A stretch of DNA of 52,407 nt from a virus. Positions 9,173-46,071 of this stretch are shown here, in pieces. The translations under genes were made by a program, and so were the position numbers. The stretch lies in UHGV virus genome UHGV-0113213. One strand, 5' to 3'. Positions within the stretch are counted from its first letter, which is position 1, and each line of letters starts with the position of its first letter. The notes below the pieces were generated by a model. That model was not told where the DNA came from. It made no database searches and was given only the letters and a program-made list of their open reading frames with translations.

Positions 9173-9200
9173 AGATCATTGTCACAATGATTATAGCTAG

Positions 9201-33604: not shown

Positions 33605-34008
33605 TGCTCACCCCACATATTAGTCGCATATTCGTTAATATCCGGTAGCAGGTCGCCGCGTTCGCATACCTTAATAAACAATCGCCCGCCTTTTACCTTC
33701 CGGCAGCGGACAATTTTTATTGAGTCGATTTGCCCATCATCATTCCAGAATCCGGCACAAGTAAGGCTGTCAAAAAGGCATTTTGGGATATTATCAAGAT
33801 CTCTGACCCGGTTATCCGGCGGCGCGGCATAAATGGCGATTGCCAGTCGGCAAGATAGGTTAATGTCTAAATTTAATAATTCGATGATGTCTTTTACTTG
33901 TTCCCGGTATTCCTTCCCCACTTCGCTGATATAGTGAAAACCTCGTGAATGTCGGTAATATCGGTTATTAGATGGCGGGTAAGGTAGGCTAAATGTATAC
34001 TCGTTCAT
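33601..34008 (-). CDS. rusA: Holliday junction resolvase RusA
   Basis: LPYPPSNNRYYRH...DLDN..K...D.L...GFW.DD matches RusA. Confidence 0.85.
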   Translation of the reverse strand: MNEYTFSLPYPPSNNRYYRHSRGFHYISEVGKEYREQVKDIIELLNLDINLSCRLAIAIYAAPPDNRVRDLDNIPKCLFDSLTCAGFWNDDGQIDSIKIVRCRKVKGGRLFIKVCERGDLLPDINEYATNMWGEQ

Positions 34009-34610
34009 GCTGCCTTTCTCCTTAAGGCGTCCAATTTTGCCTGATAGATGTTTATTAGCTCCTTACATTCTGCGATCGTCCATTTATGCGTATCATTGTT
34101 GTTCTCCAGCGCTTCCACCCTGGCGAGGCCAATTTTTCGAATCAGTGCTGGGCGATAGGCTTGTATGTTTCCGTCTAATGTCTGATTGCAGTGCCTACAT
34201 TGTTTATGGACGTTATCTTCATTGAAGCGAAGGTGTCCGGCGGCGGCGACCGTCCTGTAATGCCCCGCATCGTATCCGCATTGCTCACCGTAGTAAGTCC
34301 CGCAGGATATGCACGGCAACCGCGCGTCACGTTCGCGGATATAGGCATTAAATACCGCTTGTGCCTGCTTTAACCAATAGCTACGCGGATTTAACTGCTT
34401 CCGCTTCCGGTTGCGTTCTTCCCGCTGGCTATCACGGCGTTTCTTCCGTTCCATAGCCTTCATAGCCTTCTCACGGTCGCGGCATAACTGGTCAAATTTC
34501 AGTTCTTCCAGGCATTCGTCGCTGCACCACGTTTGATTGTGATATTTAGGCTCAAAAAAAACGCCGCAGCATTTGCAACGGCGTCTTATTGGTTTCTTAG
34601 GGTTTTGCAT
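34005..34610 (-). CDS. ninG: NinG / Rap recombination endonuclease
   Basis: RRRCKCCG, PRSYWLKQAQ, LPCISCG, DAGHYRT, RFNE.N.HKQC are conserved with lambda NinG. Confidence 0.85.
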   Translation of the reverse strand: MQNPKKPIRRRCKCCGVFFEPKYHNQTWCSDECLEELKFDQLCRDREKAMKAMERKKRRDSQREERNRKRKQLNPRSYWLKQAQAVFNAYIRERDARLPCISCGTYYGEQCGYDAGHYRTVAAAGHLRFNEDNVHKQCRHCNQTLDGNIQAYRPALIRKIGLARVEALENNNDTHKWTIAECKELINIYQAKLDALRRKAA

Positions 34611-34624
34611 AAAAACCACCCCAA

Positions 34625-34801
34625 TTATTTTTGATTCTCTGTTTCGTTCAGCCTTTCGGCGTGTCCGGCCCTTAGCGAGTGATCTACACATTCGTTGTAC
34701 TCGTTACATTCTCCTTTTTTCGTGCTGCATACATTGCACATTGCACGCATGACGCTTTCTCGTTCATAGTCGTCATGCCATTGGTAATCATCAAAAGACA
34801 T
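34625..34801 (-). CDS. hypothetical Cys-rich 58 aa protein
   Basis: RBS AAAGGAGAGAGC; lies directly downstream of the nut-like site. Confidence 0.45.
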   Translation of the reverse strand: MSFDDYQWHDDYERESVMRAMCNVCSTKKGECNEYNECVDHSLRAGHAERLNETENQK

Positions 34802-34830
34802 AATGCTCTCTCCTTTTCAGGTGATTTCTA

Positions 34831-34863
34831 CGCATTTCAGCGCTGCCGGATTTTTAAAGAGCA
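34831..34863 (-). promoter_or_regulatory. nut-like site: boxA TGCTCTTTAAAAATCCGG plus boxB-like hairpin CGCTGAAATGCG
   Basis: The boxA matches the nutR candidate (43322-43339) base for base over 18 nt. Confidence 0.55.
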
Positions 34864-34879
34864 TTTTGTTTGCTTGAAG

Positions 34880-34959
34880 TATACAAAATGGATACCCCCA
34901 AACAAGGCAAAAAGCGCCATTATGTGATCCGCATCACGCAATGATGCCATTTTGTAAAC
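34880..34959. promoter_or_regulatory. promoter region: TATACAAAATGGA ... CRP-like TGTGATCCGCATCAC ... CCATTTTGTAAAC
   Basis: Inverted motif pair flanks the palindrome. The minus-strand reading gives -10 TATACT. Confidence 0.45.
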
Positions 34960-34960
34960 T

Positions 34961-35725
34961 TTAGTCCGGTAAAATGCGGTTAAGCGTAGTACGAGTGATG
35001 GCCCGGTCGTTAGCCAGGAATACAGCACGGGCAAAGCCGCGCGGCGTTAGTGAGCGGATCATCTTAGTGCGTTTCGACTCTCCTCCTAACTTCGCGTGCT
35101 GTTTGCTGTCTTCCCATTCATCCGGCATAGGTACAGGCCGGAATAGCGGCTGCTTAAATCCATTCCCGCACCAGATACAAGTTTTCTTCGTGTATGCGTC
35201 GCGGGCAGCTATGTATTCAGGGAAAGCAGGGTGTTTGTCGTCTTCAGGCAGGTAGCCACCGTAAGCGCACGGGTTGAAGATAAAATCAGGTTTGCGCCAT
35301 AACGTTGACAGCGCACCTACCGGATTTTCCACCATCCACGGGACGTGGTACATATCAGCAAGCGTTTCTACCAGTTTTGCGTTGTATACCGCCTTCTGCT
35401 GGAAGTAAGGTTCTTTTTTCCGCTTATCAGCAAACCAGCGAGCGCCGGACACCGCAAGATCGTCGCACGGAGGAAAGCCCAGGATAATGTCAGGATCTGG
35501 ATAAACAGACAATTCAGGGGAGAACATTACCAGGAAATGGCTGTCAATCCATACGTTGATATACTCAATGTTCGGATGAATGATTTTGACGCCTTCATAA
35601 TCGCCGTGATTAGCGCCATCATAGTTGAAGCAATAGCATTTATAACCAGCGTCGGCCCAATCTTTAACGGCGTATCCGCTGCCGTCGTACAGCGACCACA
35701 CCACCCAATTTCTAAGCCCACTCAT
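34961..35725 (-). CDS. C5-cytosine DNA methyltransferase-like protein (short, no obvious TRD)
   Basis: GFPPC (motif IV PC), ENPVGA (motif VI ENV-like), LYDGSGY (motif I-like). Confidence 0.4.
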   Translation of the reverse strand: MSGLRNWVVWSLYDGSGYAVKDWADAGYKCYCFNYDGANHGDYEGVKIIHPNIEYINVWIDSHFLVMFSPELSVYPDPDIILGFPPCDDLAVSGARWFADKRKKEPYFQQKAVYNAKLVETLADMYHVPWMVENPVGALSTLWRKPDFIFNPCAYGGYLPEDDKHPAFPEYIAARDAYTKKTCIWCGNGFKQPLFRPVPMPDEWEDSKQHAKLGGESKRTKMIRSLTPRGFARAVFLANDRAITRTTLNRILPD

Positions 35726-36225
35726 TTCCTACCCTCGAACGTAAAGTAGCGGCGCATGATGATAGTGATCACCGTTACCGCCGCCATTTTTGAGATGAAT
35801 TGCATAGCTGATATTTCCGGCATGAATGCCATAAACGATAGCGTTGGGAAAATTAACGCATCGCCAATGGCGGACGCTATATTTGCAGGCCAGCGTTTAG
35901 AATCGAAATCACCAGGTAAAACCCGGTAAACGCCGCCAGAAATAAGCGCACCGGAAACAACCGCGACGAATGACGCGATCGCCACCATTCCGGCGTCGTA
36001 ATTTATCAGCACCGTGATTGCGCCAGCGGCGGCGCATGTTGTAGCCGACCATTTAAGGCCGCCGTCATATAACAGAAAATCACGAATCATCATATTGACA
36101 CACACGGCGGCTACCGTGGTGATCGGAATTACCCACGGGCCACAGTGGTTAACAATAAGATTGATGATAACGAAAACGGCGACATAAACGCAGGCTAATA
36201 ACCTGTCAATTGCCACCATCTTCAT
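35722..36225 (-). CDS. YhhQ/DUF165 (queuosine-precursor transporter family)-like membrane protein
   Basis: SKRWPANIASAIGDALIFPTLSFMAF aligns with YhhQ SRRWWLAPTASTLFGNVSDTLAFFFIAF; polytopic. Confidence 0.5.
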   Translation of the reverse strand: MKMVAIDRLLACVYVAVFVIINLIVNHCGPWVIPITTVAAVCVNMMIRDFLLYDGGLKWSATTCAAAGAITVLINYDAGMVAIASFVAVVSGALISGGVYRVLPGDFDSKRWPANIASAIGDALIFPTLSFMAFMPEISAMQFISKMAAVTVITIIMRRYFTFEGRK

Positions 36226-36400
36226 TTAGCTCTTCCTCCCGATACGCTAATATCTGTTCGGCCTTAAGCGCGTTATAAGCAATAAGGTCTATAAGAGTGT
36301 CGAGCGGATCAGTTCCATTAGCGAGAATAGCCCCTAAACGCGCTTCCTTGAGGCAAATCATTAGATCCCATACATCAAGTGGGGTTAAATTCGCATTCAT
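36206..36400 (-). CDS. hypothetical protein
   Basis: ORF. Confidence 0.35.
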   Translation of the reverse strand: MNANLTPLDVWDLMICLKEARLGAILANGTDPLDTLIDLIAYNALKAEQILAYREEELNEDGGN

Positions 36401-36517
36401 CTTAGCGTTGAAAATAGCCGCTATTTTTGGCGCTGATTTTTCTTCTTTTCGATCGTATCCGTTTTGCTCCCTCTTGCCTCGATAGTTTCAGCCGCAAGTC
36501 TCAGCAATTCAGCCGCT

Positions 36518-37057
36518 TTATTCATTTTCTGCACCTCTTGCATATAGCTCTTTACGTGTTATCTGCGTGAAAATACATTCATGTCTGCATCGTGGATGCC
36601 AGATCAGGAACAAGCTCCCCTTATTGTTCCCGCTTACTGGTTTCCCTGTTGCAGCATTGATAAACGCCAGCCGCCCGCGCGTGATTAATCGGCATTCGTT
36701 TGCCGTCTCCACGCCGTTCATAAACCAGCTAACAGAAATGTCAGCGGGCAATAACATTACGCATCCGATATGATTTCGGCTGTGTTCAAGCGCCGCTTTA
36801 TCAACGAATGGCCCCGGATTAGAATATGGCGGATTCATCCAGACATACTCACCAGGCATCGCCACCGCTCCCCACGGATAATGGAGCGTGTCCATTTCTT
36901 CGGTTATATATCGCGGTATTAATGCGTTTGCCTTGTTTGCCGCCACATCCGCGACGAACTCGAATTCTCGATCCATTCCTCTAAAAACGGGTTTTGGCGT
37001 TTGCCATAAGTCCTTTATTTCTTTCGGCGTATGGCTGCCGCCGTAATCATTTTTCAT
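36518..37057 (-). CDS. phage N6-adenine DNA methyltransferase (Dam_N6A-like)
   Basis: NPPYS motif IV; size matches phage Dam-like methyltransferases. Confidence 0.7.
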   Translation of the reverse strand: MKNDYGGSHTPKEIKDLWQTPKPVFRGMDREFEFVADVAANKANALIPRYITEEMDTLHYPWGAVAMPGEYVWMNPPYSNPGPFVDKAALEHSRNHIGCVMLLPADISVSWFMNGVETANECRLITRGRLAFINAATGKPVSGNNKGSLFLIWHPRCRHECIFTQITRKELYARGAENE

Positions 37058-37066
37058 TACGCCCCC

Positions 37067-37555
37067 TTAGAAATAATCCTGATCTGTTCCCCAGCGGTTA
37101 TTCAGATACCCCACCAACCACACAAAACGCTCAATACTGATTAGCGGGGCGACCTTGCGATAATGCTTATCTAATATCAGCCGCGTGGCTTTATCGCTGT
37201 AGCCGTTCTTCTCTACCTCCGCTTTGCAGGCCGAAAGCGCGGCGCGGGCGGCAGTCTTTACGGCGTTAAATTGCGGCTCTGACATATTGAATAAGGCCAT
37301 AGGATCACCATGTGTCAGTCCAATCCGGCGCGGCAGTCCAGCAAAAACCAATGAATGCGCTAACAGCCAATAAAGCGCGGGCTGCAAAAAGAATATTCCC
37401 AATGTCGTTAAATTCAGGAAGCGACCACGTAATAAACATAGCCCCAGCATAATAACACCGATAACAGTCATGGCCGCCAGGAAAACAAAAAGCGTAGCCA
37501 AAAGCCACGCCCCCAACCAGTTAAAAAAGCTCTTAAGCATTTTAAACGTCCTCAA
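37067..37555 (-). CDS. membrane protein (3-4 TM)
   Basis: Hydrophobic N-terminal half. Confidence 0.4.
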   Translation of the reverse strand: MRTFKMLKSFFNWLGAWLLATLFVFLAAMTVIGVIMLGLCLLRGRFLNLTTLGIFFLQPALYWLLAHSLVFAGLPRRIGLTHGDPMALFNMSEPQFNAVKTAARAALSACKAEVEKNGYSDKATRLILDKHYRKVAPLISIERFVWLVGYLNNRWGTDQDYF

Positions 37556-37745
37556 TTACCCCGCCTTTCACACGCTCTTTAATATCCCATACGTGAGGCT
37601 TGCATATTTCCTGATAATAGTGATCCGGCCTGCTGCCGAAATACCATTTGCCATCCATATAAAAATAAACGCCAGAATAATTTCCTGGCGCTGCCTTTGT
37701 TGCTGCTTCTGGAATTTTCCATTCCATGTAATGTTTAAATTTCAT
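37542..37745 (-). CDS. hypothetical protein
   Basis: ORF. Confidence 0.3.
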   Translation of the reverse strand: MKFKHYMEWKIPEAATKAAPGNYSGVYFYMDGKWYFGSRPDHYYQEICKPHVWDIKERVKGGVIEDV

Positions 37746-37929
37746 GAGTTTTTAAATAACCCCTTCTGAATGCTTTGATGTAAAGTCCTAGCCTTCTTAT
37801 ATGCTGAACGCCATCAATGATGCGCACTAAATAAATTGCACCGTTTGTGTCAGATACAAAATGACAGCCAAAACCAATACCAACCAACTTCAGGTTGTCA
37901 GGTATTCTATAATCAGTTTTCTGTTCCAT
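37735..37929 (-). CDS. hypothetical protein
   Basis: ORF. Confidence 0.3.
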   Translation of the reverse strand: MEQKTDYRIPDNLKLVGIGFGCHFVSDTNGAIYLVRIIDGVQHIRRLGLYIKAFRRGYLKTHEI

Positions 37930-38027
37930 GCCTCACCTCATATGGTATTCAATAAACCACCTGATAAACAGACATAAGGCAATAAAACCCCAGCAACAGC
38001 ACATATAAAACAATGTGTCGTCCATAA

Positions 38028-38246
38028 TTAAGCCTCAATAACACCGTAATCGAACGTGCCTAAATACCGTTCGATACTTACAACCTCAATACCATCAATG
38101 CACCGTTTCCACACAGACACCTGGCTTTCATTTTCTCTGAAGTGCATATTAGAAAGCACTTCATCGGCTGGGTAGCCTTTCCCGGCGACGTAGGCATCGT
38201 GACCTACGCCACCTTCTACGCAATAAAGCATCAATTCGCGTTCCAT
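38028..38246 (-). CDS. hypothetical protein
   Basis: Internal start MERELM has an RBS. Confidence 0.35.
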   Translation of the reverse strand: MERELMLYCVEGGVGHDAYVAGKGYPADEVLSNMHFRENESQVSVWKRCIDGIEVVSIERYLGTFDYGVIEA

Positions 38247-38282
38247 CTTGTTTCCTCCGTGCCGTAAACCTCTTAATTTCAG

Positions 38283-38340
38283 TTTACAAAACGGATATGC
38301 GATCGCAATACAAAATGTATATTTATGTGATCGCAATCAC
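38283..38340. promoter_or_regulatory. motif copies TTTACAAAACGG / ATACAAAATGTA plus CRP-like TGTGATCGCAATCAC
   Basis: Read directly from the sequence. Confidence 0.4.
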
Positions 38341-38344
38341 GCTG

Positions 38345-38995
38345 TTAATGCAGTACACGTTTTTCCTGTTCATGAATAGGCTGTGCACTTTTCATTGCTT
38401 CGTTAAGCGTAGCTATAGCCGCCTGTACGCCGAATTCATTAGCGCGCATATCATCGCCAACAAATTTTCCGTAAAGCACCGGAATAAACGCCTTAACGTT
38501 CACTTCTTCGTGTCCTTCCTCAATAAATTTCTGCAACATCTTAACCTCAAAGACCTTTTTCATCAGGCCGCGCATAGAATGCAGTGAAACACTGCCAAGC
38601 AGATCCTTGTTCAACGGGAAAATAACAGCACTTCCGAACGCGAGCGGATCAACATCTTCCGGCACTGGTGCGCGTCCGAATTCCTCCTCCATGCGTCTTA
38701 CGAAAGTGAGGCAGAACACATAACGCGCTACCGATGTTTTTTCTTCCATGCTTAAAGACACGTAATCGCGGATTGATGCATTCATCATAATATCGACAAT
38801 CTGTAGCGCCAGATTTAAGTCACTGTCATACACTCCTGCTTCCATATCTTTTAAAACTTCGTGATAATCCTTAGTTACCACTTCGTGAAAGCTCGCGTCC
38901 TCTGTGTAGCGAGTAATTAACATGCCTTCGCTGCCGAGTGAATAAGCCGTTTTGATATTGTTCATAATATTTACCCTTATAGTGGATGATGCCAT
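38345..38995 (-). CDS. hypothetical protein
   Basis: ORF. Confidence 0.4.
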   Translation of the reverse strand: MASSTIRVNIMNNIKTAYSLGSEGMLITRYTEDASFHEVVTKDYHEVLKDMEAGVYDSDLNLALQIVDIMMNASIRDYVSLSMEEKTSVARYVFCLTFVRRMEEEFGRAPVPEDVDPLAFGSAVIFPLNKDLLGSVSLHSMRGLMKKVFEVKMLQKFIEEGHEEVNVKAFIPVLYGKFVGDDMRANEFGVQAAIATLNEAMKSAQPIHEQEKRVLH

Positions 38996-39309
38996 TTCAT
39001 TTCAGTTTCTGAATTAAACGGGTTTCCTTCGCTTGAAAGGAATAAATCACGCTCCCGTTTCAGTTCTTCCGGGCTTATTTCTATTTCATCAATCTGACCG
39101 AACGATCCAGGCATCATCCGTTTTAAATCGGATAGCGGACGCATAAGGCCGCAGCCACGTAACAGCATGTCTATAGCGAATTGTCTACGCCCTGCTGCAT
39201 CATTAAAGCGACGCGCCCACGGGACACACACAATCCGGCGTTCGAACTCAATAAATAGTGATAGCTTGTTAGTCTGACTATCATAGGCCTTATGTAATTT
39301 AATTTTCAT
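38977..39309 (-). CDS. hypothetical protein
   Basis: ORF. Confidence 0.35.
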   Translation of the reverse strand: MKIKLHKAYDSQTNKLSLFIEFERRIVCVPWARRFNDAAGRRQFAIDMLLRGCGLMRPLSDLKRMMPGSFGQIDEIEISPEELKRERDLFLSSEGNPFNSETEMKWHHPL

Positions 39310-39490
39310 TTAACACCTCAACATATTGTTCAAGATGCCATCTCCCCACCTCATCATCTTCCTCATCAAATAATATTACTTGACCACCAGGCAAAAAAGA
39401 AAAGGCAGCTATAATAAACTCATAGCCATACCAAGTGCGGATCTTCTCACCGCCTTTCAGGTGTTTTACTTTCACTAATTTTATAGCCAT
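39299..39490 (-). CDS. hypothetical protein
   Basis: ORF. Confidence 0.3.
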   Translation of the reverse strand: MAIKLVKVKHLKGGEKIRTWYGYEFIIAAFSFLPGGQVILFDEEDDEVGRWHLEQYVEVLNEN

Positions 39491-39753
39491 ACGCCGTACA
39501 TCCCATTCAGCCCGGCAAACAATTTCCGCCAGTGGTCTTCAACATAATCCCGGAACGGCTTAACGCGAACATTGCGGGCCTTCAGTTCAATCTTGTCAAA
39601 GAAACGAGGCTCAATAATCGTTCCATCCAGATATTTAACCAGGATCGGGCGCTCAAGATCGTTATATGTCTTGTTCAGCACAACCAGACCAGGGTCGCTA
39701 CGATATTCTGGCAAAACAACAAGATCGCCATCTTTTGCATTCCAAGTAACCAT
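39481..39753 (-). CDS. hypothetical protein
   Basis: ORF. Confidence 0.35.
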   Translation of the reverse strand: MVTWNAKDGDLVVLPEYRSDPGLVVLNKTYNDLERPILVKYLDGTIIEPRFFDKIELKARNVRVKPFRDYVEDHWRKLFAGLNGMYGVWL

Positions 39754-39872
39754 CACATCGCCCCTTTACAAATAAAGCTAATCACCGCAGCAAGTGCGCC
39801 GCAAAACACAATCGTAAACAGGAAACAAATAACGCAAAAAGCGACCCTTACAATATTCTTGCAAACCTTCAT
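39753..39872 (-). CDS. 39 aa hydrophobic peptide MKVCKNIVRVAFCVICFLFTIVFCGALAAVISFICKGAM
   Basis: RBS GGGGTGAG; fills an otherwise ORF-free gap. Confidence 0.45.
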   Translation of the reverse strand: MKVCKNIVRVAFCVICFLFTIVFCGALAAVISFICKGAM

Positions 39873-39875
39873 AAC

Positions 39876-39995
39876 TCACCCCAACAATGCAACAATTAAT
39901 TCAGCAATAAAAACGGCGACATAAAAAGAAGCTGTGATATAAATCACCCCAATAACGAAGGCGGCGGCTAATGCCGCAATTTTTACCATGCTCAT
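39876..39995 (-). CDS. 39 aa hydrophobic peptide MSMVKIAALAAAFVIGVIYITASFYVAVFIAELIVALLG
   Basis: RBS GGAGGCTGATAA. Confidence 0.45.
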   Translation of the reverse strand: MSMVKIAALAAAFVIGVIYITASFYVAVFIAELIVALLG

Positions 39996-40231
39996 TTATC
40001 AGCCTCCGCAATGAACTTATCAAGCCATTTGTTATTGGCCAGGCGTTCGGCATCTTCGCCAAATGTTTTACGTTCGCTTAATTCCTTGCGCGTTGGTATA
40101 GGCCATTTATCGTGCCACCCGGCAGACGTTTCGAACTCATACAGGCCGCCGTTAAAAGTGACATAGTCATCAGATGAGTCAGGCAGCTCTTTATCAACAT
40201 CTTTTTCTTCGATCATGATTTGATACCTCAT
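39992..40231 (-). CDS. hypothetical protein
   Basis: ORF. Confidence 0.35.
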   Translation of the reverse strand: MRYQIMIEEKDVDKELPDSSDDYVTFNGGLYEFETSAGWHDKWPIPTRKELSERKTFGEDAERLANNKWLDKFIAEADK

Positions 40232-40509
40232 TAATCGTTAATAACCTGGCCCATACGCCCGCGATATTTGCGCATACGTGGATCGACATATTCAGGCCAG
40301 TGCATATCCGGTTTTCTTTGCAGCGGATAAAAACTTGCCTGCCAGTTGTCGAACCATATTTGTTTTGCGTACAGGTCACTAAATCTTTTCGCCATCCGTT
40401 CCGCTGCCGTGCCGCATAAAAAAAGCCCGCGATCGATTTGATCACGGGCTTCTTTTAATACTTGCTCTTTTGTTCGTGGCGGTGGTGGCGGTTTTAGATA
40501 ATCAACCAT
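40231..40509 (-). CDS. hypothetical protein
   Basis: ORF. Confidence 0.35.
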   Translation of the reverse strand: MVDYLKPPPPPRTKEQVLKEARDQIDRGLFLCGTAAERMAKRFSDLYAKQIWFDNWQASFYPLQRKPDMHWPEYVDPRMRKYRGRMGQVIND

Positions 40510-40524
40510 CGCTAACCTATTGGA

Positions 40525-40929
40525 TCAAAACGGGATATCGTCATCAAAGTCCATCGGCGGATTATTCCCGTTATTATTCTGCTGCTGCGGAGGCGCTTTC
40601 TGCTGCTGGCCTTGTTGGTTAACGTTCATGAATTCAAATTCGTTAACCGCCACTTCTACCGCCGTTCCCTTCGTGCCGTCGTTCCGGTCATATTGCCGAA
40701 CATCCAGGCGACCGCTTACCACTATTTTTCCACCCTTGCGGATATGTGGCGCTAATTTTTCCGCACGCTCACCAAATACCAGGCAAGTGACCCACATTGT
40801 CCGCTTATTATCGCCGTAGCCATTCGTTACAGCTAACGGAAAACTACCAATCGCTTTCCCGTTTTGTGTGTAGCGAACCTCCATATCATTACCGATATTC
40901 CCGCCCAGCGTGATTGAATTTAAACTCAT
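40525..40929 (-). CDS. ssb: single-stranded DNA-binding protein
   Basis: OB-fold pattern; Gln/Pro-rich linker; acidic tail DFDDDIPF. Confidence 0.85.
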   Translation of the reverse strand: MSLNSITLGGNIGNDMEVRYTQNGKAIGSFPLAVTNGYGDNKRTMWVTCLVFGERAEKLAPHIRKGGKIVVSGRLDVRQYDRNDGTKGTAVEVAVNEFEFMNVNQQGQQQKAPPQQQNNNGNNPPMDFDDDIPF

Positions 40930-41573
40930 TAACCCATCTCCCCGTTAAGCTCTGCTACCCGGATGTCATAAACATCTTTTGCCTTGATTCGATGTTCCGA
41001 TCCTTCCGGTAGTAATTTCCAGCATTTGCCAAATATTTCACGCAGCTTGTTAGCGTCCTGCGCTTTCGCTGCTGCATCACAGAAACGTGCTAATACTTCA
41101 TCAGGATTTGGCGGCGCTTTCTGCTGCTGTGGTTGTTGTTTTGGTGGGTTTTTCTGCTGGCGAGGCTGCTGGCCTGTCTGCTTAGCGTATGCGTCAGTAT
41201 CAGGATCTCGCGCATCATCAATGCAGAATAAACCGTTCAAAGCGTATTTTCGCGCGTAACTTGATGTCGCACCTGTTAGCTGGCTTGCGTCCATTCCCTT
41301 CTTGCTTTCTTCTTCCCTGGCGTAAGCCGTTACCGCTATTTCGTCTTCACCGTCGCTTAGCGTCGCCGTAGCTTTCACATAATAGCGATTGCCGATCAGG
41401 ACAATTTCATCGCTTACAGTCAGCGTAATACTTTGAAGCAGTGGTTTAACCGCCTCTAAAATATCCTCCGCCGACCTGTAATTATATCCACCAAAATTAT
41501 TACGCTGATTTTTCGGCGCGTTCAGCGTTTGCTGAATCGTCCATAGCTTTTTATGTAACTCTGTTTTCACCAT
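40929..41573 (-). CDS. Erf-family single-strand annealing protein
   Basis: GGYNYRSAEDI...YARKYALNGLF. Confidence 0.6.
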   Translation of the reverse strand: MVKTELHKKLWTIQQTLNAPKNQRNNFGGYNYRSAEDILEAVKPLLQSITLTVSDEIVLIGNRYYVKATATLSDGEDEIAVTAYAREEESKKGMDASQLTGATSSYARKYALNGLFCIDDARDPDTDAYAKQTGQQPRQQKNPPKQQPQQQKAPPNPDEVLARFCDAAAKAQDANKLREIFGKCWKLLPEGSEHRIKAKDVYDIRVAELNGEMG

Positions 41574-41689
41574 TTAATCTCCCGTGCTGTTAACACTATG
41601 TATAAGGCTTTATTCGCGGCGCTCCACATTTCGGCATCGTGAAGCATTTCCGCTACTGCCAGTTTGAATTGAAGCGCCTGAATAACCAT
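41570..41689 (-). CDS. hypothetical 39 aa protein
   Basis: RBS GGAG; coupled to erf. Confidence 0.35.
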
Positions 41690-41719
41690 AATGTCATCTC
41701 CGGATGTTTACATTTTGTA

Positions 41720-42010
41720 TTAATGGTAGCGGACTTTATCCAGGGGTTTTTCCCCTAAATGGCGTGGTTGCGTTGCGTGGTAGTAGCTGCCGCTTTCATT
41801 TTCCGTATACCATTTTACTGATCCTTTGCGACGTTCTTTAATGCTATTTGGTTTGCATCTTTCCTCGTTTGCAAATCGAATAGCTTTATCCACATTGTCT
41901 GTTTTATTGATTGCAGGTGATGATTTTCTTTCGTTTTCTCTTTTTATCCTTCTGCGTTCCCTGGCATTCATTTTGCTATCACATTTACCATATATAATTG
42001 TAACGCTCAT
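41720..42010 (-). CDS. N: N-like antitermination protein
   Basis: Arginine-rich motif NARERRRIKRENERK; first gene downstream of the pL candidate and a nutL-like boxA. Confidence 0.55.
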   Translation of the reverse strand: MSVTIIYGKCDSKMNARERRRIKRENERKSSPAINKTDNVDKAIRFANEERCKPNSIKERRKGSVKWYTENESGSYYHATQPRHLGEKPLDKVRYH

Positions 42011-42299
42011 AATCTGATCTCCGTATATCCTTGATGATACTTAATAAAAAATCATCTTCGTTAATTGCCGCACTTCCAGCGGCTGACCAGATTGTTAATG
42101 AGCGGCTTAACATCTTTCAACTAATCCCGCAATCATCGCCGTTCCCGGCGTGACCTTGCTCACTCCAAGCAAGCTGACTCGTCGCCTTGCGTGCGGTTTC
42201 GTGGGGGATGTAACGCTTTAAACACCCCATGCGCCTTGTTATCAGTGCCGCTTTCGGTCCCCCATCGGGGAGTTACTCCACGGTTGACAAGGTGTTAAG

Positions 42300-42317
42300 C
42301 CTGATTTTTAAAGTGCC
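42300..42317 (-). promoter_or_regulatory. nutL-like boxA GGCACTTTAAAAATCAGG
   Basis: 15/18 match to the other two boxA copies. No clear boxB; a TCCCCGATGGGGGA hairpin lies ~35 nt downstream. Confidence 0.35.
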
Positions 42318-42349
42318 AGGAAGTTGCTTTTGTTACCTGCGCCCTTCCT

Positions 42350-42387
42350 TTGACTCGCAATATACGCCCCGTAAAACATCGAGTCAA
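42350..42387 (-). promoter_or_regulatory. pL candidate TTGACT-N17-TATATT inside an inverted repeat TTGACTCG-N22-CGAGTCAA
   Basis: Near-consensus sigma70 promoter on the minus strand. Motif copy TCCATTTTGTATAC lies just upstream. Confidence 0.5.
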
Positions 42388-42477
42388 TCCATTTTGTATA
42401 CTTTTTTAAAATATTTTATATGCCATTGATATTTAAATAATAAATAACGTTTTCTGTTTACGTTTTGGTGTTTTCCA

Positions 42478-42504
42478 GGCAAAGAAAAGCCGCCATTCGG
42501 CGGC
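42478..42504 (-). terminator. terminator after cI
   Basis: GCCGCCGAATGGCGGC followed by TTTTCTTT on the minus strand. Confidence 0.65.
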
Positions 42505-42510
42505 TAATGT

Positions 42511-43158
42511 TTATGGCAGGTTTACGATCTTCGCATCAACCACCACGCCTATAATTTTTGATTCTGGATTCATAGGGATTGGCGGATACAGCGGATTGAG
42601 CGAACGTAAAAGCCTTTGACCTCCATCAATAATCAACTGTTTAAACGTCGGTATCTGCCCTTCCTCAAGCTGGGCTATAACCAGTTTGCCGTCAATAGCT
42701 GGCGCGTGCGGGTCCACAAGTATCATCGTCCCCGCCGGGATGCTCAACCCCTGCGGCGCGTTCATTGATTCACCTTTGGCAACCAGCCAGTAACTGTCAT
42801 CTGAACAAATAACGCTAGTCGTAACGTGTCGTAATGCTGAACGCCTTGCGTCATCCATATTGTTTACTGTGTCCTTCCAGTCAATAACCGGGTAACTACC
42901 TAAATCACGCGGCGGCACGGCCTGAAGTGTATTAGAAACAGAATCATCAATGACCATGCCATCATGTGTAACAGTAAACTGCCGACGACCAAGCTCGCGC
43001 ATAATCCGCGCAATATCTTCAAGATTTGGCTCTCGGCGACCGTTCAGCCAGTGTGACAGGCCGCCTTTAGTTATCCCCATACGATCCGCGAGTGAATCCT
43101 GGCTCATGCCCTGCGCCCGCATGAGCTGCTTTGCTAAGTCATACCATTTTGTTTTCAT
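42511..43158 (-). CDS. cI: CI-like repressor (HTH_XRE + S24 LexA-like peptidase)
   Basis: N-terminal HTH (QDSLADRMGITKGGLSHWLNG); C-terminal SMN...G and K dyad consistent with the S24 family. Confidence 0.8.
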   Translation of the reverse strand: MKTKWYDLAKQLMRAQGMSQDSLADRMGITKGGLSHWLNGRREPNLEDIARIMRELGRRQFTVTHDGMVIDDSVSNTLQAVPPRDLGSYPVIDWKDTVNNMDDARRSALRHVTTSVICSDDSYWLVAKGESMNAPQGLSIPAGTMILVDPHAPAIDGKLVIAQLEEGQIPTFKQLIIDGGQRLLRSLNPLYPPIPMNPESKIIGVVVDAKIVNLP

Positions 43159-43189
43159 GTCGCTACCCTATAACCTCAAAAAGTTTGAT

Positions 43190-43282
43190 GCAAGTCACAA
43201 AACGTGTATTTTAAGCCTTGATCTTAAAATTCCATTTTGTAAACTTGCAGACAAGGTAAGGCCATACTTGCAAAGACGCAAG
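43190..43282. promoter_or_regulatory. OR-like region: pR candidate TTGATC-N16-TAAACT with operator-like palindromes CTTGCAGACAAG and CTTGCAAAGACGCAAG; motif copy TCCATTTTGTAAAC
   Basis: The CTTGC/GCAAG half-site recurs four times between cI and the first rightward gene. Confidence 0.4.
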
Positions 43283-43321
43283 GAAAAAGATAACGGAAGG
43301 CACAAAAAGGCACTTACCTTA

Positions 43322-43355
43322 TGCTCTTTAAAAATCCGGTGTCGCTGCGAAGCGA
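43322..43355 (+). promoter_or_regulatory. nutR candidate: boxA TGCTCTTTAAAAATCCGG plus boxB hairpin TCGCTGCGAAGCGA
   Basis: Consensus boxA (CGCTCTTTA-like), with a stem-loop 3 nt downstream. Confidence 0.55.
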
Positions 43356-43463
43356 AAAACAAATATCACGCAACGGCGGGATCTGTTGAGCGGTCAGTCA
43401 CTGCTATCTAATGCTAATGGGATGCCCGCCCGCGCGTTCACTCTAACCATAGGAGAAAATGCG

Positions 43464-43730
43464 ATGAGTATAAACATGATTAGTAAAGCATGGAACGTAA
43501 AACTTAATAGCCCGATTCAAAAACTTGTCTTAATGGCTCTGGCTGAAAAGGCAGATAACAAAGGACGGGTACATGATGCATCACGCAAAGAAGTAGCCGC
43601 AATGTGTGAACTTCCTGTTCATACGGTACATGATGCCTTCGCCGCGTTAATGGATAAAGGATTTGTTTGTCGTCTTGATGCATTCAGTGATGTCTATGTA
43701 GTGATGTTGCCGGGGGGGGATGATCTATGA
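43464..43730 (+). CDS. winged-HTH protein resembling the N-terminal DNA-binding domain of replication protein O
   Basis: KLVLMALAEKADNKGRVHDASRKEVAAMCELPVHTVHDAF resembles lambda O residues ~50-100. RBS AGGAGAAAATGCG. Confidence 0.45.
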   Translation: MSINMISKAWNVKLNSPIQKLVLMALAEKADNKGRVHDASRKEVAAMCELPVHTVHDAFAALMDKGFVCRLDAFSDVYVVMLPGGDDL

Positions 43731-44773
43731 AGTGGTTTAAGCATGACAGCGATGCGAACCGCGATGAAAAACTTCAAAACGTTTTGTTAGATTATGGCCT
43801 GGAAGGGTACGGGCTTTATTGGTATTGCCTCGAACTAATAACTTATGACGTAGATCAGCACAATCTGAATTTTGACCTACGACATGACGCGAGAATCATT
43901 GCGCGAAACGTCGGATCGACTGAAAAACGTATAGAAGAAATGATGAAATACTTCATCGAAATTGGTTTGTTTGAATGTTCTCAAGGCCACATAACTTGTT
44001 TAAAGTTATTGAAAAGGCTTGATCAATCAATGACTTCTAAAAGCGCGTACAGGGCCGCCATAAACACAGCTAAGGAGCAATTAAAATTAGAAAAGTTAAT
44101 CAATCCAACACAAAAAGGTCATGATAGGGTCATGACCGGGTCAGGAAAGGGTCATGAATTAGAAGTAGAAGAAGAAAGAGAAAAAGATATATACACTTCG
44201 TGTATTGTCGAAAATGAACAAAAAATGTTCAATCGGGATGGCGTAAACGAAGCGGCATTGCGTTGTCTTTCCTTCTACAACGACAAGGCAGGATGCAAAT
44301 GTCGTGATGCGAAGCCATTCATAGAACTACTGACAGAAACAAAAACACGTAAAGCATATACTGAGGAAGAAATCACATTAGTAATCGAGTGGGCTTTAAC
44401 GCAATGGCGTAGCCGTGGTGGAACACCTAAGCCTATCAACATTTGCCGGGTAACTAAATTTGATGGGTATCTGGCTGATGCTGAACAATGGCGCAAACTG
44501 TCAGCCACTGCAAACGCTGCCGATGTGGTGGAAGCATTTAACAGCACGTTTGACGGTCTGTTACCACATGCCGAACTGGATCGGGATCTTGAACGTAAGA
44601 TCTATGCGTTCACTGACTACCTGAAAGACAAAAGCATCACTGGCTTTATTGCTTACTTTGAGGCGTTCAAAAACACGGCTTCAGATTTTTACTTCGGCAA
44701 TGGCTTTACTGCGACACTGGATTTTCTACTTAAACCAAAAACGCTACGTGATACACGATGTGGCGCTCTTTGA
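43727..44773 (+). CDS. replisome organiser / replication initiation protein (Phage_rep_org_N-like)
   Basis: MKWFKHDSDANRDEKL N-terminus; iterons embedded in the linker region. Confidence 0.55.
   Translation: MKWFKHDSDANRDEKLQNVLLDYGLEGYGLYWYCLELITYDVDQHNLNFDLRHDARIIARNVGSTEKRIEEMMKYFIEIGLFECSQGHITCLKLLKRLDQSMTSKSAYRAAINTAKEQLKLEKLINPTQKGHDRVMTGSGKGHELEVEEEREKDIYTSCIVENEQKMFNRDGVNEAALRCLSFYNDKAGCKCRDAKPFIELLTETKTRKAYTEEEITLVIEWALTQWRSRGGTPKPINICRVTKFDGYLADAEQWRKLSATANAADVVEAFNSTFDGLLPHAELDRDLERKIYAFTDYLKDKSITGFIAYFEAFKNTASDFYFGNGFTATLDFLLKPKTLRDTRCGAL
44117..44200. promoter_or_regulatory. candidate replication origin: four GGTCATGA iterons at 11-bp spacing, then an AT/purine-rich tract
   Basis: Iterons at 44117, 44128, 44139 (degenerate) and 44150; followed by agaagtagaagaagaaagagaaaaagatatata. 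Confidence 0.5.
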
Positions 44774-44905
44774 CCAATCACGATCCGCAAAAATCCAAAA
44801 TTACCCACAAACAACCTCACCAGCTAGCTAAATCGCATGTGGTGCTACACTTGCTTACCTTTTTGCGATTAGCTCGTTATAGAGCGTTACAGAGAGGATT
44901 TTAAA

Positions 44906-45007
44906 ATGGACGGTAAACACGTTTTCGCCCTGGCTTTTGCCATCGCTGCGGCAATCGCTGTTAACGTCGCCTTGTTCGGCGGATTGTATCTGCTAGTTAA
45001 TCCATAA
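44906..45007 (+). CDS. 33 aa hydrophobic peptide MDGKHVFALAFAIAAAIAVNVALFGGLYLLVNP
   Basis: RBS AGAGGA; fills an intergenic gap. Confidence 0.35.
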   Translation: MDGKHVFALAFAIAAAIAVNVALFGGLYLLVNP

Positions 45008-45147
45008 CTACCCTTCTACCTTAAAAATCGAAAATTAGCCACATGATTGCGCTTCTGGCGCAAAAAAGACACTGCAACCTTACAAGTGGGTTACGCGGTG
45101 GGTTTTTGCGTTGTAGCGCGTCTGAGGCGTTTTAAGGAGTTGGATCG

Positions 45148-46071
45148 ATGCGCAAGTTAACACATGATGAACAGGTTGCGGCTATCGCTAAGGTTAATCA
45201 TGATGTCGAAGTGCTTGGGGAAATTGTCAATAACAGGACAAAAGTATCCTGCCGCTGCAAGGTTTGCAGTCACGAATGGTCGGCTAGACCTTACAATCTT
45301 AAAAGCGGTTACGGCTGCCCGAAATGCGCCGGAAAGATGAAATTATCACACGAAGAACAGGTTGCCGCTATCGAGAAGGTTAATTCTGATGTCGAAGTGA
45401 TTGGCGAAATAATAAACGGCGATACAAAAGCATTATGCCGCTGCAAAGTTTGTAATCACGAATGGTCGGCTAAACCTAACAACCTAAAAAACGGGCGCGG
45501 CTGCCCGAAATGTAAAGGTTTAAAAATCGCACAAAGACGAACATTATCACACGAAGAACATTTATCCGCTATCACTAAGGTAAATCATGATATTGAAGTA
45601 TTGGGAGAAATAATAAACGATAGGACAAAAGTATTATGTCGATGCAAGGTTTGTGATCATAAGTGGTCGCCTAGACCTTATGCTATTAAAAGCGGGCAAG
45701 GCTGCCCGAAATGTGCGAAACACGGTTTTTTGTCACACAATTTCGGCAAACTTTACATCATGGTTGATGATCCTGAAGTGCCTACACAAATGAAAATCGG
45801 CGTAAGCGTTAATGAGAACAAGCGAAGAAATCGGGTATTAAAAAGCGCACATAAATCAGGCGTTAGAATCCCTGATTTATGTGTCGTGAAAACGTTAGAA
45901 GGTCCAACCGAAAATATCCATGAATTAGAAAGCACGATGCATAAATATTTCAGCAATTATAAAATTAACTTTCCTGTAAAATTTGATGGCAGTAATGAGT
46001 TTTTCTATTACAGGCCGGAAGTATTCGACATGGTAGAAGAAGCATATAAAGAGATTGTTTGCTGTCAATGA
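45148..46071 (+). CDS. protein with 3 tandem zinc-ribbon repeats plus C-terminal GIY-YIG/T5orf172-like domain
   Basis: Three copies of CRCKVCxHEWS..P...K.G.GCPKC; C-terminus GKLYIMVDD...MKIGVS. Confidence 0.5.
   Translation: MRKLTHDEQVAAIAKVNHDVEVLGEIVNNRTKVSCRCKVCSHEWSARPYNLKSGYGCPKCAGKMKLSHEEQVAAIEKVNSDVEVIGEIINGDTKALCRCKVCNHEWSAKPNNLKNGRGCPKCKGLKIAQRRTLSHEEHLSAITKVNHDIEVLGEIINDRTKVLCRCKVCDHKWSPRPYAIKSGQGCPKCAKHGFLSHNFGKLYIMVDDPEVPTQMKIGVSVNENKRRNRVLKSAHKSGVRIPDLCVVKTLEGPTENIHELESTMHKYFSNYKINFPVKFDGSNEFFYYRPEVFDMVEEAYKEIVCCQ
45157..45729. repeat. three ~190-200 bp tandem repeats (zinc-ribbon units)
   Basis: Protein-level triplication mirrored in the DNA. Confidence 0.6.

Follow-up and report, generated by a model that had tools for sequence, protein, structure and literature searches.

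The virus genome UHGV-0113213 is a stretch of 52,407 nucleotides (referred to below, at its full length, as the window) in which boxA-like repeats accompany the gene for an arginine-rich, N-like protein. A first-pass annotation, made from the letters alone, had proposed that these repeats are nut sites of N-dependent antitermination and that one of them lies inside the leftward operon. The genes and sites concerned are listed in Table 1. A gene for a CI-like repressor is flanked by putative early promoters, the gene for the N-like protein lies to its left on the minus strand, and a ninF-like gene, ninG, rusA and the gene for the Q antiterminator follow further along the same strand. Judged by synteny and by nucleotide similarity to phage mEp021, the window is an mEp021-like ("mEpimmI") temperate coliphage. 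Positions 34000-46000 are 85-87% identical at the nucleotide level to mEp515, mEp021, mEp010, mEp013, mEp554 and mEp044 across 82-92% of their length; mEp515 and mEp021 cover 91-92% of this 12-kb query at 85-86% identity, with the same gene order. A related prophage was found in 35 complete E. coli genomes. The mEpimmI group has been described with 48 genomes, and the mEp phages were originally isolated as Nus-dependent (PMC11893012).

Table 1. Genes, nut sites and predicted control elements of the antitermination system in the window
Feature	Positions	Strand	Description
Rightward early promoter-like module	43184-43245	+	palindrome TTTGA-N6-TCACA 43184-43199; -35 TTGATC 43218-43223; 16-nt spacer; -10 TAAACT 43240-43245 within the 13-mer CCATTTTGTAAAC
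nutL (published name)	43322-43355	+	boxA TGCTCTTTA 43322-43330; 18-mer to 43339; boxB UCGCU-GCGA-AGCGA 43342-43355; rightward (replication) early operon
CI-like repressor gene	42511-43158	-	HTH_3 and Peptidase_S24; between two divergent early promoters
Leftward early promoter candidate	42359-42387	-	TTGACT-17-TATATT; best sigma-70 match in the region (10/12); kept in relatives
Orphan boxA-like 18-mer	42300-42317	-	GGCACTTTAAAAATCAGG; 5' edge of a ~213-nt cassette with a 37-codon open reading frame (gp16 of mEp021)
nutR1 (most likely published name)	42067-42104	-	boxA CGCTCATTAACAATC 42104-42090; spacer TGGTCA; boxB GCCGC-UGGAAGU-GCGGC 42083-42067; 57 nt upstream of the start codon of the N-like gene
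N-like antiterminator gene	41720-42010	-	Gp17 homolog, 96 aa; arginine-rich motif NARERRRIKRENERK
Hairpin after methyltransferase-like gene (TERM_4/t4 predicted in mEp021)	34912-34948	-	overlaps the palindrome of the module below
Promoter-like module upstream of nutR2	34878-34938	-	palindrome CGTGA-N6-TCACA 34938-34923; -35 TTGTTT 34905-34900; 16-nt spacer; -10 TATACT 34883-34878
nutR2 (published name)	34830-34863	-	18-mer 34863-34846; boxB GCGC-UGAAAU-GCGU 34843-34830, extendable to C34845/G34828
ninF-like gene	34801-34625	-	58-aa open reading frame; PHROG 30170 (function unknown); mEp021 gp34, annotated 'putative NinF protein'
Predicted intrinsic terminator	34554-34587	-	ACGCCGUUGCAAAUGCUGCGGCG followed by U8; at the 5' end of ninG, ~300 nt past nutR2 and ahead of rusA and Q
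NinG	to 34005	-	Pfam, E 1e-66
RusA	34008-33601	-	Pfam, E 1e-14
60-aa open reading frame	33604-33422	-	no family
Q antiterminator	33422-32694	-	Pfam Antiterm, E 1.7e-31; PHROG 127 Q-like, 3.7e-79; 30-39% identical to lambdoid Q proteins

In mEp021, the lambda-N-like protein Gp17 carries out early antitermination and acts at three nut sites: nutL is next to the repressor gene, nutR1 precedes gp17, and nutR2 follows the cytosine-methyltransferase gene (PMC11893012). The positions of these sites are similar across all 48 mEpimmI genomes, nutR1 is the most variable of them, and the extra site is what sets mEp021 apart from lambda (PMC11893012). Gp17-dependent antitermination has been reported for mEp021, the experimental paper cited being Valencia-Toxqui et al. 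2023, Arch Virol 168:92 (PMC11893012). The N-like protein of the window fits this background, as the first-pass annotation had supposed: it has 93% identity to Gp17, and its match in PHROG is family 271, 'anti-termination protein N-like' (E 1.3e-13). Its arginine-rich motif (ARM) has R17, R19, R20, R21 and R24, including the conserved arginines 17, 19, 20 and 24 (PMC11893012). The protein has no Pfam match, a PDB sequence search gave no meaningful match, and it resembles lambda N only in the ARM.

The 18-mer TGCTCTTTAAAAATCCGG is present in two exact copies, at 43322-43339 on the plus strand and at 34846-34863 on the minus strand, and in a third copy with three mismatches (GGCACTTTAAAAATCAGG, 42300-42317, minus strand), all of which the first-pass annotation had located correctly. 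Three matches did not occur in any of 100 dinucleotide-preserving shuffles. Against the consensus CGCUCUU(U)A (PMC2724277), the boxA sequences of the window comprise two perfect copies of UGCUCUUUA and one site with CGCUCAUUA. Three complete sites, each with a boxB stem-loop 3' of boxA that is kept as a structure, are found at the published positions, whereas no such stem-loop belongs to 42300-42317. The earlier reading of the repeats as nut sites of an N-like system was right, and both exact copies were rightly paired with hairpins, although the third site had been misplaced at 42300-42317 and the real nutR1, at 42104-42067, had been missed.

The supplements of PMC11893012 contain no nut sequences, and the published names were mapped onto window coordinates indirectly. 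The plus-strand site is taken as nutL because it separates the repressor gene from the first rightward gene, in agreement with the figure legend of PMC11893012, and the site at 34830-34863 as nutR2 because it lies between a cytosine-methyltransferase-like gene and the ninF-like gene, as that paper describes; the internal nut site before the nin genes and Q, noticed in the first-pass annotation, therefore matches the published nutR2. The site at 42104-42067 is most likely the published nutR1, since it is upstream of the gp17 homolog, has the most variable boxA and is present in all genomes, and since its counterpart in mEp021 is as far from nutR2 as reported for nutR1 (see below). The lambda-style labels used earlier are the reverse of the published ones because the orientation of the window is reversed, so that the former "nutR" at 43322-43355 is nutL of mEp021.

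Relatives were gathered by a Gp17-anchored search, which yielded 43 related viral contigs; four mEp phages were added, all boxA-like sites were tabulated, and counts are given over 48 genomes. A scan of viral contigs with the 14-mer GCTCTTTAAAAATC had been too permissive and returned mostly unrelated contigs, and the Gp17-anchored search, with its 43 related loci, was used instead. One unrelated contig (IMGVR_UViG_641509421_000001, L011 in our list) holds at 2233-2900 a tandem array of seven copies of this boxA-like word, GCTCTTTAAAAATC, at a spacing of exactly 109 nt.

Among the relatives, all 48 genomes have nutR1, whose boxA varies more than that of any other site and includes the form TGCTCTTTAACAATC; nutR2 is present in 47, the contig of the 48th ending short of the site; and nutL is kept in essentially all, with loop variants (GCGA, GCAA, GUGA) that all hold a G-N-R-A core. 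The predicted boxB hairpins fold with -10.1 kcal/mol at nutR1, -6.5 kcal/mol at nutL and -5.5 kcal/mol at nutR2. Folding energy alone is weak evidence for boxB because the hairpins after the two exact copies are short, with z scores of about -2.3 to -2.6 only in 17-nt windows and near zero in 41-42-nt windows. The changes between relatives are more informative. The lower stem of nutR2 varies as CAGCGC..GCGUAG, UAACGC..GCGUAA and CCCCGC..GCGGAA, and nutR1 of one relative (L167) has another stem around the same loop (UGCAC-UGAAAU-GUGCA). In an ungapped alignment of 13 distinct sequences from nutL, nutR2 and the L167 nutR1, 72.5% of cells pair, whereas sliding the partners leaves no more than 54%; five pair types occur at one pair, and none of 500 shuffles attained the observed covariation score. 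A scan of the whole window against Rfam at gathering thresholds gave no match, so that the nut sites are without an Rfam family as far as the scan shows.

We therefore consider it very probable that the repeats are nut sites of lambda-N-like processive antitermination of the mEp021 type. The sites are real, and they are functional by homology, with function transferred from mEp021. Several points weigh against this conclusion. That transfer is itself one of them, since function in the window would be carried over from another phage; the assignment of nutR1 to 42104-42067 has indirect grounds; the boxB hairpins are short, with z scores of -0.1 to -0.8 in 41-45-nt contexts and of about -2 to -2.6 only in 17-21-nt windows; and the relatives are closely related, so that covariation events are few, although all of them are in the same direction.

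The three-nut system is already known, having been published for mEp021 and its group, and the window is another member. Its nutR1 and nutR2 match those of mEp021 at every base, its nutL at all but one, and the sites are placed alike relative to the repressor gene, gp17, the methyltransferase-like gene and the nin-Q genes; apart from the reversed orientation and the swapped names, the two phages show no substantive difference here. With lambda, the window shares the order of boxA, spacer and boxB hairpin on early transcripts, which bears out the comparison suggested in the first-pass annotation (lambda sites read from J02459: nutL CGCTCTTAAAAATTAA-GCCCTGAAGAAGGGC, nutR CGCTCTTACACATTCCA-GCCCTGAAAAAGGGC). 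Both also have an N-terminal ARM (lambda AQTRRRERRAEK, window ARERRRIKRENE), the gene order repressor-early promoter-nut-N, and Q and nin genes beyond terminators. Lambda differs in having two complete sites instead of three. The boxA of the window is the rrn consensus with an extra U, and its distance to boxB is about 4 nt longer; the boxB hairpins have stems of 3-5 bp and loops of the U-GNRA-U/A or UGGAAGU form, in contrast to the GAAAA or GAAGA pentaloop of lambda. The nin-Q genes follow the N/recombination operon, whereas in lambda they end the pR (replication) operon, and the Gp17 homolog matches neither Pfam nor, by sequence, PDB.

The E. coli rrn antiterminator, in which boxA works with NusB/NusE/NusA/NusG, provides a second comparison. 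The rrn boxA is 5'-UGCUCUUUA-3' and that of lambda is 5'-CGCUCUUA-3' (PMC2724277). The former is identical to the boxA beginning at 43322 and at 34863, and the nutR1 of relatives, with UGCUCUUUAACAAUC, matches rrn boxA together with the start of the rrn spacer (ugcucuuuaacaauuua). In rrn, however, boxB is upstream of boxA and dispensable, whereas a conserved hairpin follows boxA in the window; the phage system also needs an ARM protein, according to the work on mEp021 (PMC11893012). A boxA-only antitermination of the rrn type, using host Nus factors without a phage N-like protein and with incidental hairpins, would account for the perfect rrn boxA at two sites, which binds NusB/NusE and NusA better than the lambda boxA does, and for the solitary boxA at 42317; it is nevertheless highly improbable in view of the hairpins at a fixed distance from boxA in three paralogous sites, hairpins that show compensatory changes and whose loop variants keep GNRA, of the ARM protein encoded nearby with its near-identity to Gp17, and of the Gp17-dependent antitermination reported in PMC11893012.

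Downstream of nutR2, the succession of a small gene, NinG, RusA and Q named in the first-pass annotation is borne out by Pfam. The strong intrinsic terminator predicted at the 5' end of ninG folds with -18.7 kcal/mol (z -3.7) and is found 298-302 nt past the boxA core of nutR2 in all 47 genomes that cover the region. It is nearly invariant, with single-base variants only, confined to the loop and to bases 5' of the stem, and the annotations of mEp515, mEp010 and mEp013 have ARNold terminators at this position. Terminators downstream of the nut sites in the window are predicted ones, Gp17-dependent read-through having been reported for mEp021 only. Because Q lies beyond the ninG terminator, expression of Q and late transcription should need Gp17 at or before nutR2; nutR2 would thus gate ninG-rusA-Q and hence late gene expression.

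The events at the three sites may be envisaged as follows. On the nascent RNA, a boxA equal or nearly equal to the E. coli rrn consensus would be bound by NusB/NusE, and about 11 nt past it a short GC-stemmed boxB, with a loop of the U-GNRA-U/A type or UGGAAGU, would be bound by the ARM of the Gp17 homolog. The complex so formed would make RNA polymerase resistant to terminators downstream. The site at 43322-43355 (plus strand) would serve the rightward replication operon, that at 42104-42067 (minus strand) would act just before the N-like gene, and that at 34863-34830 (minus strand) would gate ninG-rusA-Q. As for the polymerases that use nutR2, they may be those of long read-through transcripts from the leftward early promoter, and they may also be those that start from a promoter-like module directly upstream, a paralog of the rightward early promoter. 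The two uses are not mutually exclusive.

PMC11893012 assigns nutR2 to the same early transcription as nutR1, which is rightward in the orientation of that paper. On this published view, nutR2 would be used only by polymerases that come from the leftward early promoter of the window after more than 7 kb, and it would re-load or reinforce the Gp17 complex before the ninG terminator, with no internal promoter involved. In mEp021, nutR1 lies 7,947 nt (7.95 kb) upstream of the nutR2 boxA, and Valencia-Toxqui et al. 2023 reportedly place nutR2 >7.9 kbp downstream of nutR1, with RNA polymerase reading through to it. One long leftward transcript is possible because the genes from 42010 to 32694 are all on the minus strand with short gaps, and terminator-like hairpins between nutR1 and nutR2 (37692-37668 and 37514-37488) mean that the complex could be lost en route. 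The re-establishment of antitermination in the middle of the leftward transcript, proposed in the first-pass annotation, is only one possibility. On the other hand, lambda N-modified polymerase stays modified for many kilobases, so that a second site is not obviously needed. In addition, the sequence before nutR2 is conserved and paralogous to the rightward promoter module, its -35 and -10 being at a fixed spacing, and the hairpin annotated as t4 just upstream of this module looks like an operon boundary; the internal site may therefore be promoter-proximal for a separate transcript. We regard exclusive use of nutR2 by read-through polymerases as slightly less than evenly likely.

The similarity between the loci at 43322 and 34863 runs through the boxB stem and about 65 nt upstream. 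The rightward and nutR2 modules are identical in 46 of 67 columns (score 17, compared with 2.9±1.5 in shuffles), and both have a palindrome near TGTGA-N6-TCACA, a -35-like hexamer 18-19 nt further on and a -10 inside the 13-mer CCATTTTGTAWAC. The same module also occurs at 38341-38277 and 28674-28610, both on the minus strand, each intergenic and oriented with the downstream genes; pairwise module alignments score 14-20, against shuffle means of 3-5 (standard deviation 1.5-2). Upstream of nutR2, 38 distinct sequences conserve the palindrome half-sites, the CTTGT of the -35 and the -10/13-mer, and vary in the palindrome centre and the promoter spacer. The gap from the palindrome to the 13-mer/-10 is 31-32 nt in nearly all of the 43 loci, and the geometry of the rightward module is likewise kept in relatives. 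For a transcript started by the nutR2 module, this would put the first base of boxA at about +9 and the centre of the palindrome near -60, where CRP binds at class I promoters.

These features suggest that nin-Q may be an autonomous third early unit, with an internal promoter at about 34905-34878 in one of four paralogous modules, nutR2 at about +9, and, in the absence of Gp17, a halt at the ninG terminator; we put this forward as a tentative possibility, somewhat more doubtful than not. The bare existence of a promoter upstream of nutR2 is likewise conceivable and falls at, or a little above, the same tentative level. The predicted elements stand in the order terminator, promoter, nut, terminator, an arrangement that would do no harm in a lysogen, where, without Gp17, transcripts would end at the ninG terminator. 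Three considerations tell against an internal promoter. Its hexamers (TTGTTT and TATACT) are weak and below the threshold of the promoter scan; the 13-mer and the palindrome could serve some other purpose as binding sites; and the palindrome may instead belong to the predicted terminator t4, as its stem. The t4 hairpin folds with -23.4 kcal/mol (z -5.3) in mEp021 and with -15 kcal/mol (z -1.15) in the window, and no compensatory changes were seen in it among the relatives' sequences inspected. The palindrome-to-(-10) geometry recurs at three other loci without the outer stem, and we keep both the t4-stem and the module readings.

Sites like the CRP consensus TGTGA-N6-TCACA are frequent in the window, with nine at no more than one mismatch compared with 1.4±1.1 in shuffles. 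They lie at 590, 7523, 28659, 31685, 34923, 38326, 39933, 43184 and 46618, four of them in the paralogous modules, where each is centred near -60, and hint at control of several internal promoters by cAMP-CRP or a phage activator. A second dispersed element is the asymmetric 13-mer GTWTACAAAATGG, with 21 sites at no more than two mismatches (3.6±1.9 in shuffles). Exact copies are at 9200 and 34879 on the plus strand and at 34947, 42389, 43232 and 47213 on the minus strand; inverted pairs are at 584/614, 9132/9200, 12179/12208 and 34879/34947. In the promoter-like modules the 13-mer overlaps the -10, and at the leftward early promoter it adjoins the -35. An extended -10, an IHF site and a DnaA site were each discarded as explanations by eye against the known consensus sequences, their register or consensus being a misfit. 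The repressor or another regulator may use the 13-mer as an operator; the homolog of the repressor in mEp021 is Rep021, whose operators are not defined (PMC11893012).

The leftward early promoter candidate would drive the orphan boxA, gp16, nutR1 and the N-like gene. In an alignment of the leaders from this promoter to gp17, genomes of the mEp013 type are without the gp16 cassette and have a single canonical nut site, TGCTCTTTAA(T/C)AATCTGGTCA-GCCGCUGGAAGUGCGGC; in the window, this canonical site lies at the 3' edge of the cassette (42104-42067). The element at 42300-42317 is present in 35 of the 48 genomes, and we read it as an orphan boxA-like copy left at the edge of a small insertion. The first-pass annotation had taken it for the promoter-proximal leftward nut, for which a distant or unconventional boxB would have to be supposed. 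It is indeed a three-mismatch copy that shares 15 of 18 bases with the other 18-mers and lies at about +35 from the best promoter. The leader RNA (42352-42008) also folds unusually well (z -3.6), and an 8-bp helix, GCUUAACA/UGUUAAGC, would place 42300-42317 by the boxA/boxB of nutR1. Against this, RNA folding found no boxB hairpin at the usual distance, an A replaces the conserved U of its boxA (GCACUUU), and the element is gone together with the gp16 cassette from 13 of the 48 genomes, which hold one canonical nut there. A functional nut site at 42300-42317 is thus unlikely.

The cassette itself (42105-42299, minus strand) is about 213 nt long, with 195 nt between the boxA copies. It is bracketed by two imperfect boxA copies and also by an 8-bp inverted repeat, GCTTAACA...TGTTAAGC, and among the phages that carry it the identity is 98.5-99.5%, compared with about 85% in their flanking sequences. 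We considered that it might be a mobile element and dropped this idea, as it was seen solely at this locus in this phage group and nowhere else in the phage collection. Further along the same leader, a hairpin at 42056-42033 on the minus strand (GAUGAU-U5AUUAAGU-AUCAUC), kept in relatives, separates the boxB of nutR1 from the ribosome-binding site of the N-like gene. The leader of lambda N has an RNase III-sensitive hairpin, which the position of this one recalls, and translational control of Gp17 is therefore possible.

That the internal 18-mer is a mere passenger of a duplicated promoter or regulatory cassette, with no role in antitermination, is very unlikely: a wider repeat, missed in the first-pass annotation, does exist, as the shared similarity of some 65 nt upstream indicates, and the same cassette is found without nut at two other loci (38341-38277 and 28674-28610), but nut is the most conserved part of the intergenic region in its 38 distinct sequences, the nutR2 hairpin covaries, a strong invariant terminator follows 300 nt downstream, and PMC11893012 lists the internal nut as a functional site.

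On the rightward side, the first open reading frame after nutL (43464-43730, plus strand, 88 aa) looks like an N-terminal replication-initiator domain (PHROG 4617, E 2e-22) rather than a Cro-type regulator; no obvious cro gene was found between the rightward promoter and the replication genes. A 375-nt gap in this operon (44774-45147, plus strand) holds a hydrophobic open reading frame of 33 codons (44907-45008) and a weak boxA-like sequence, CCTTAAAAATC at 45020-45030 (CTTTAAAAATC in one relative, locus L137), followed by the hairpin TTGCGC-TTCTG-GCGCAA. We did not count it as a nut site, since it is without GCTC and its loop is not purine-rich.

The first-pass annotation had also suggested that the stretch from the internal nut through the nin genes and Q is a relocated and inverted distal part of a pR-type operon. 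This has some support, as evolutionary inference only, in that the internal nut and its module are paralogous to the rightward promoter and nut, which is what a split and relocated unit would give. A pR-nutR-...-nin-Q unit that was split, its distal part being relocated with a copy of the control region, is suggestive, not demonstrated. We did not find in PMC11893012 the orphan boxA by the gp16 cassette, the promoter-like module before nutR2 or the invariant terminator inside ninG. What remains new is only the reading of the module as an internal promoter and regulatory element, which is unverified.

The three-nut layout is the main regulatory difference of this abundant group of gut coliphages from lambda, and the site map of the window is now corrected, with the true promoter-proximal nut given and the other copy recognized as an orphan boxA. 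The internal nut would gate Q through one strong, invariant terminator, and an internal promoter paralogous to the rightward early promoter offers a testable reason for the third nut. If that promoter exists, the third nut would owe its existence to a third promoter, Q expression and lytic commitment would integrate the availability of Gp17 with input from cAMP-CRP or a phage regulator, and the early-to-late switching of these phages would be drawn differently.

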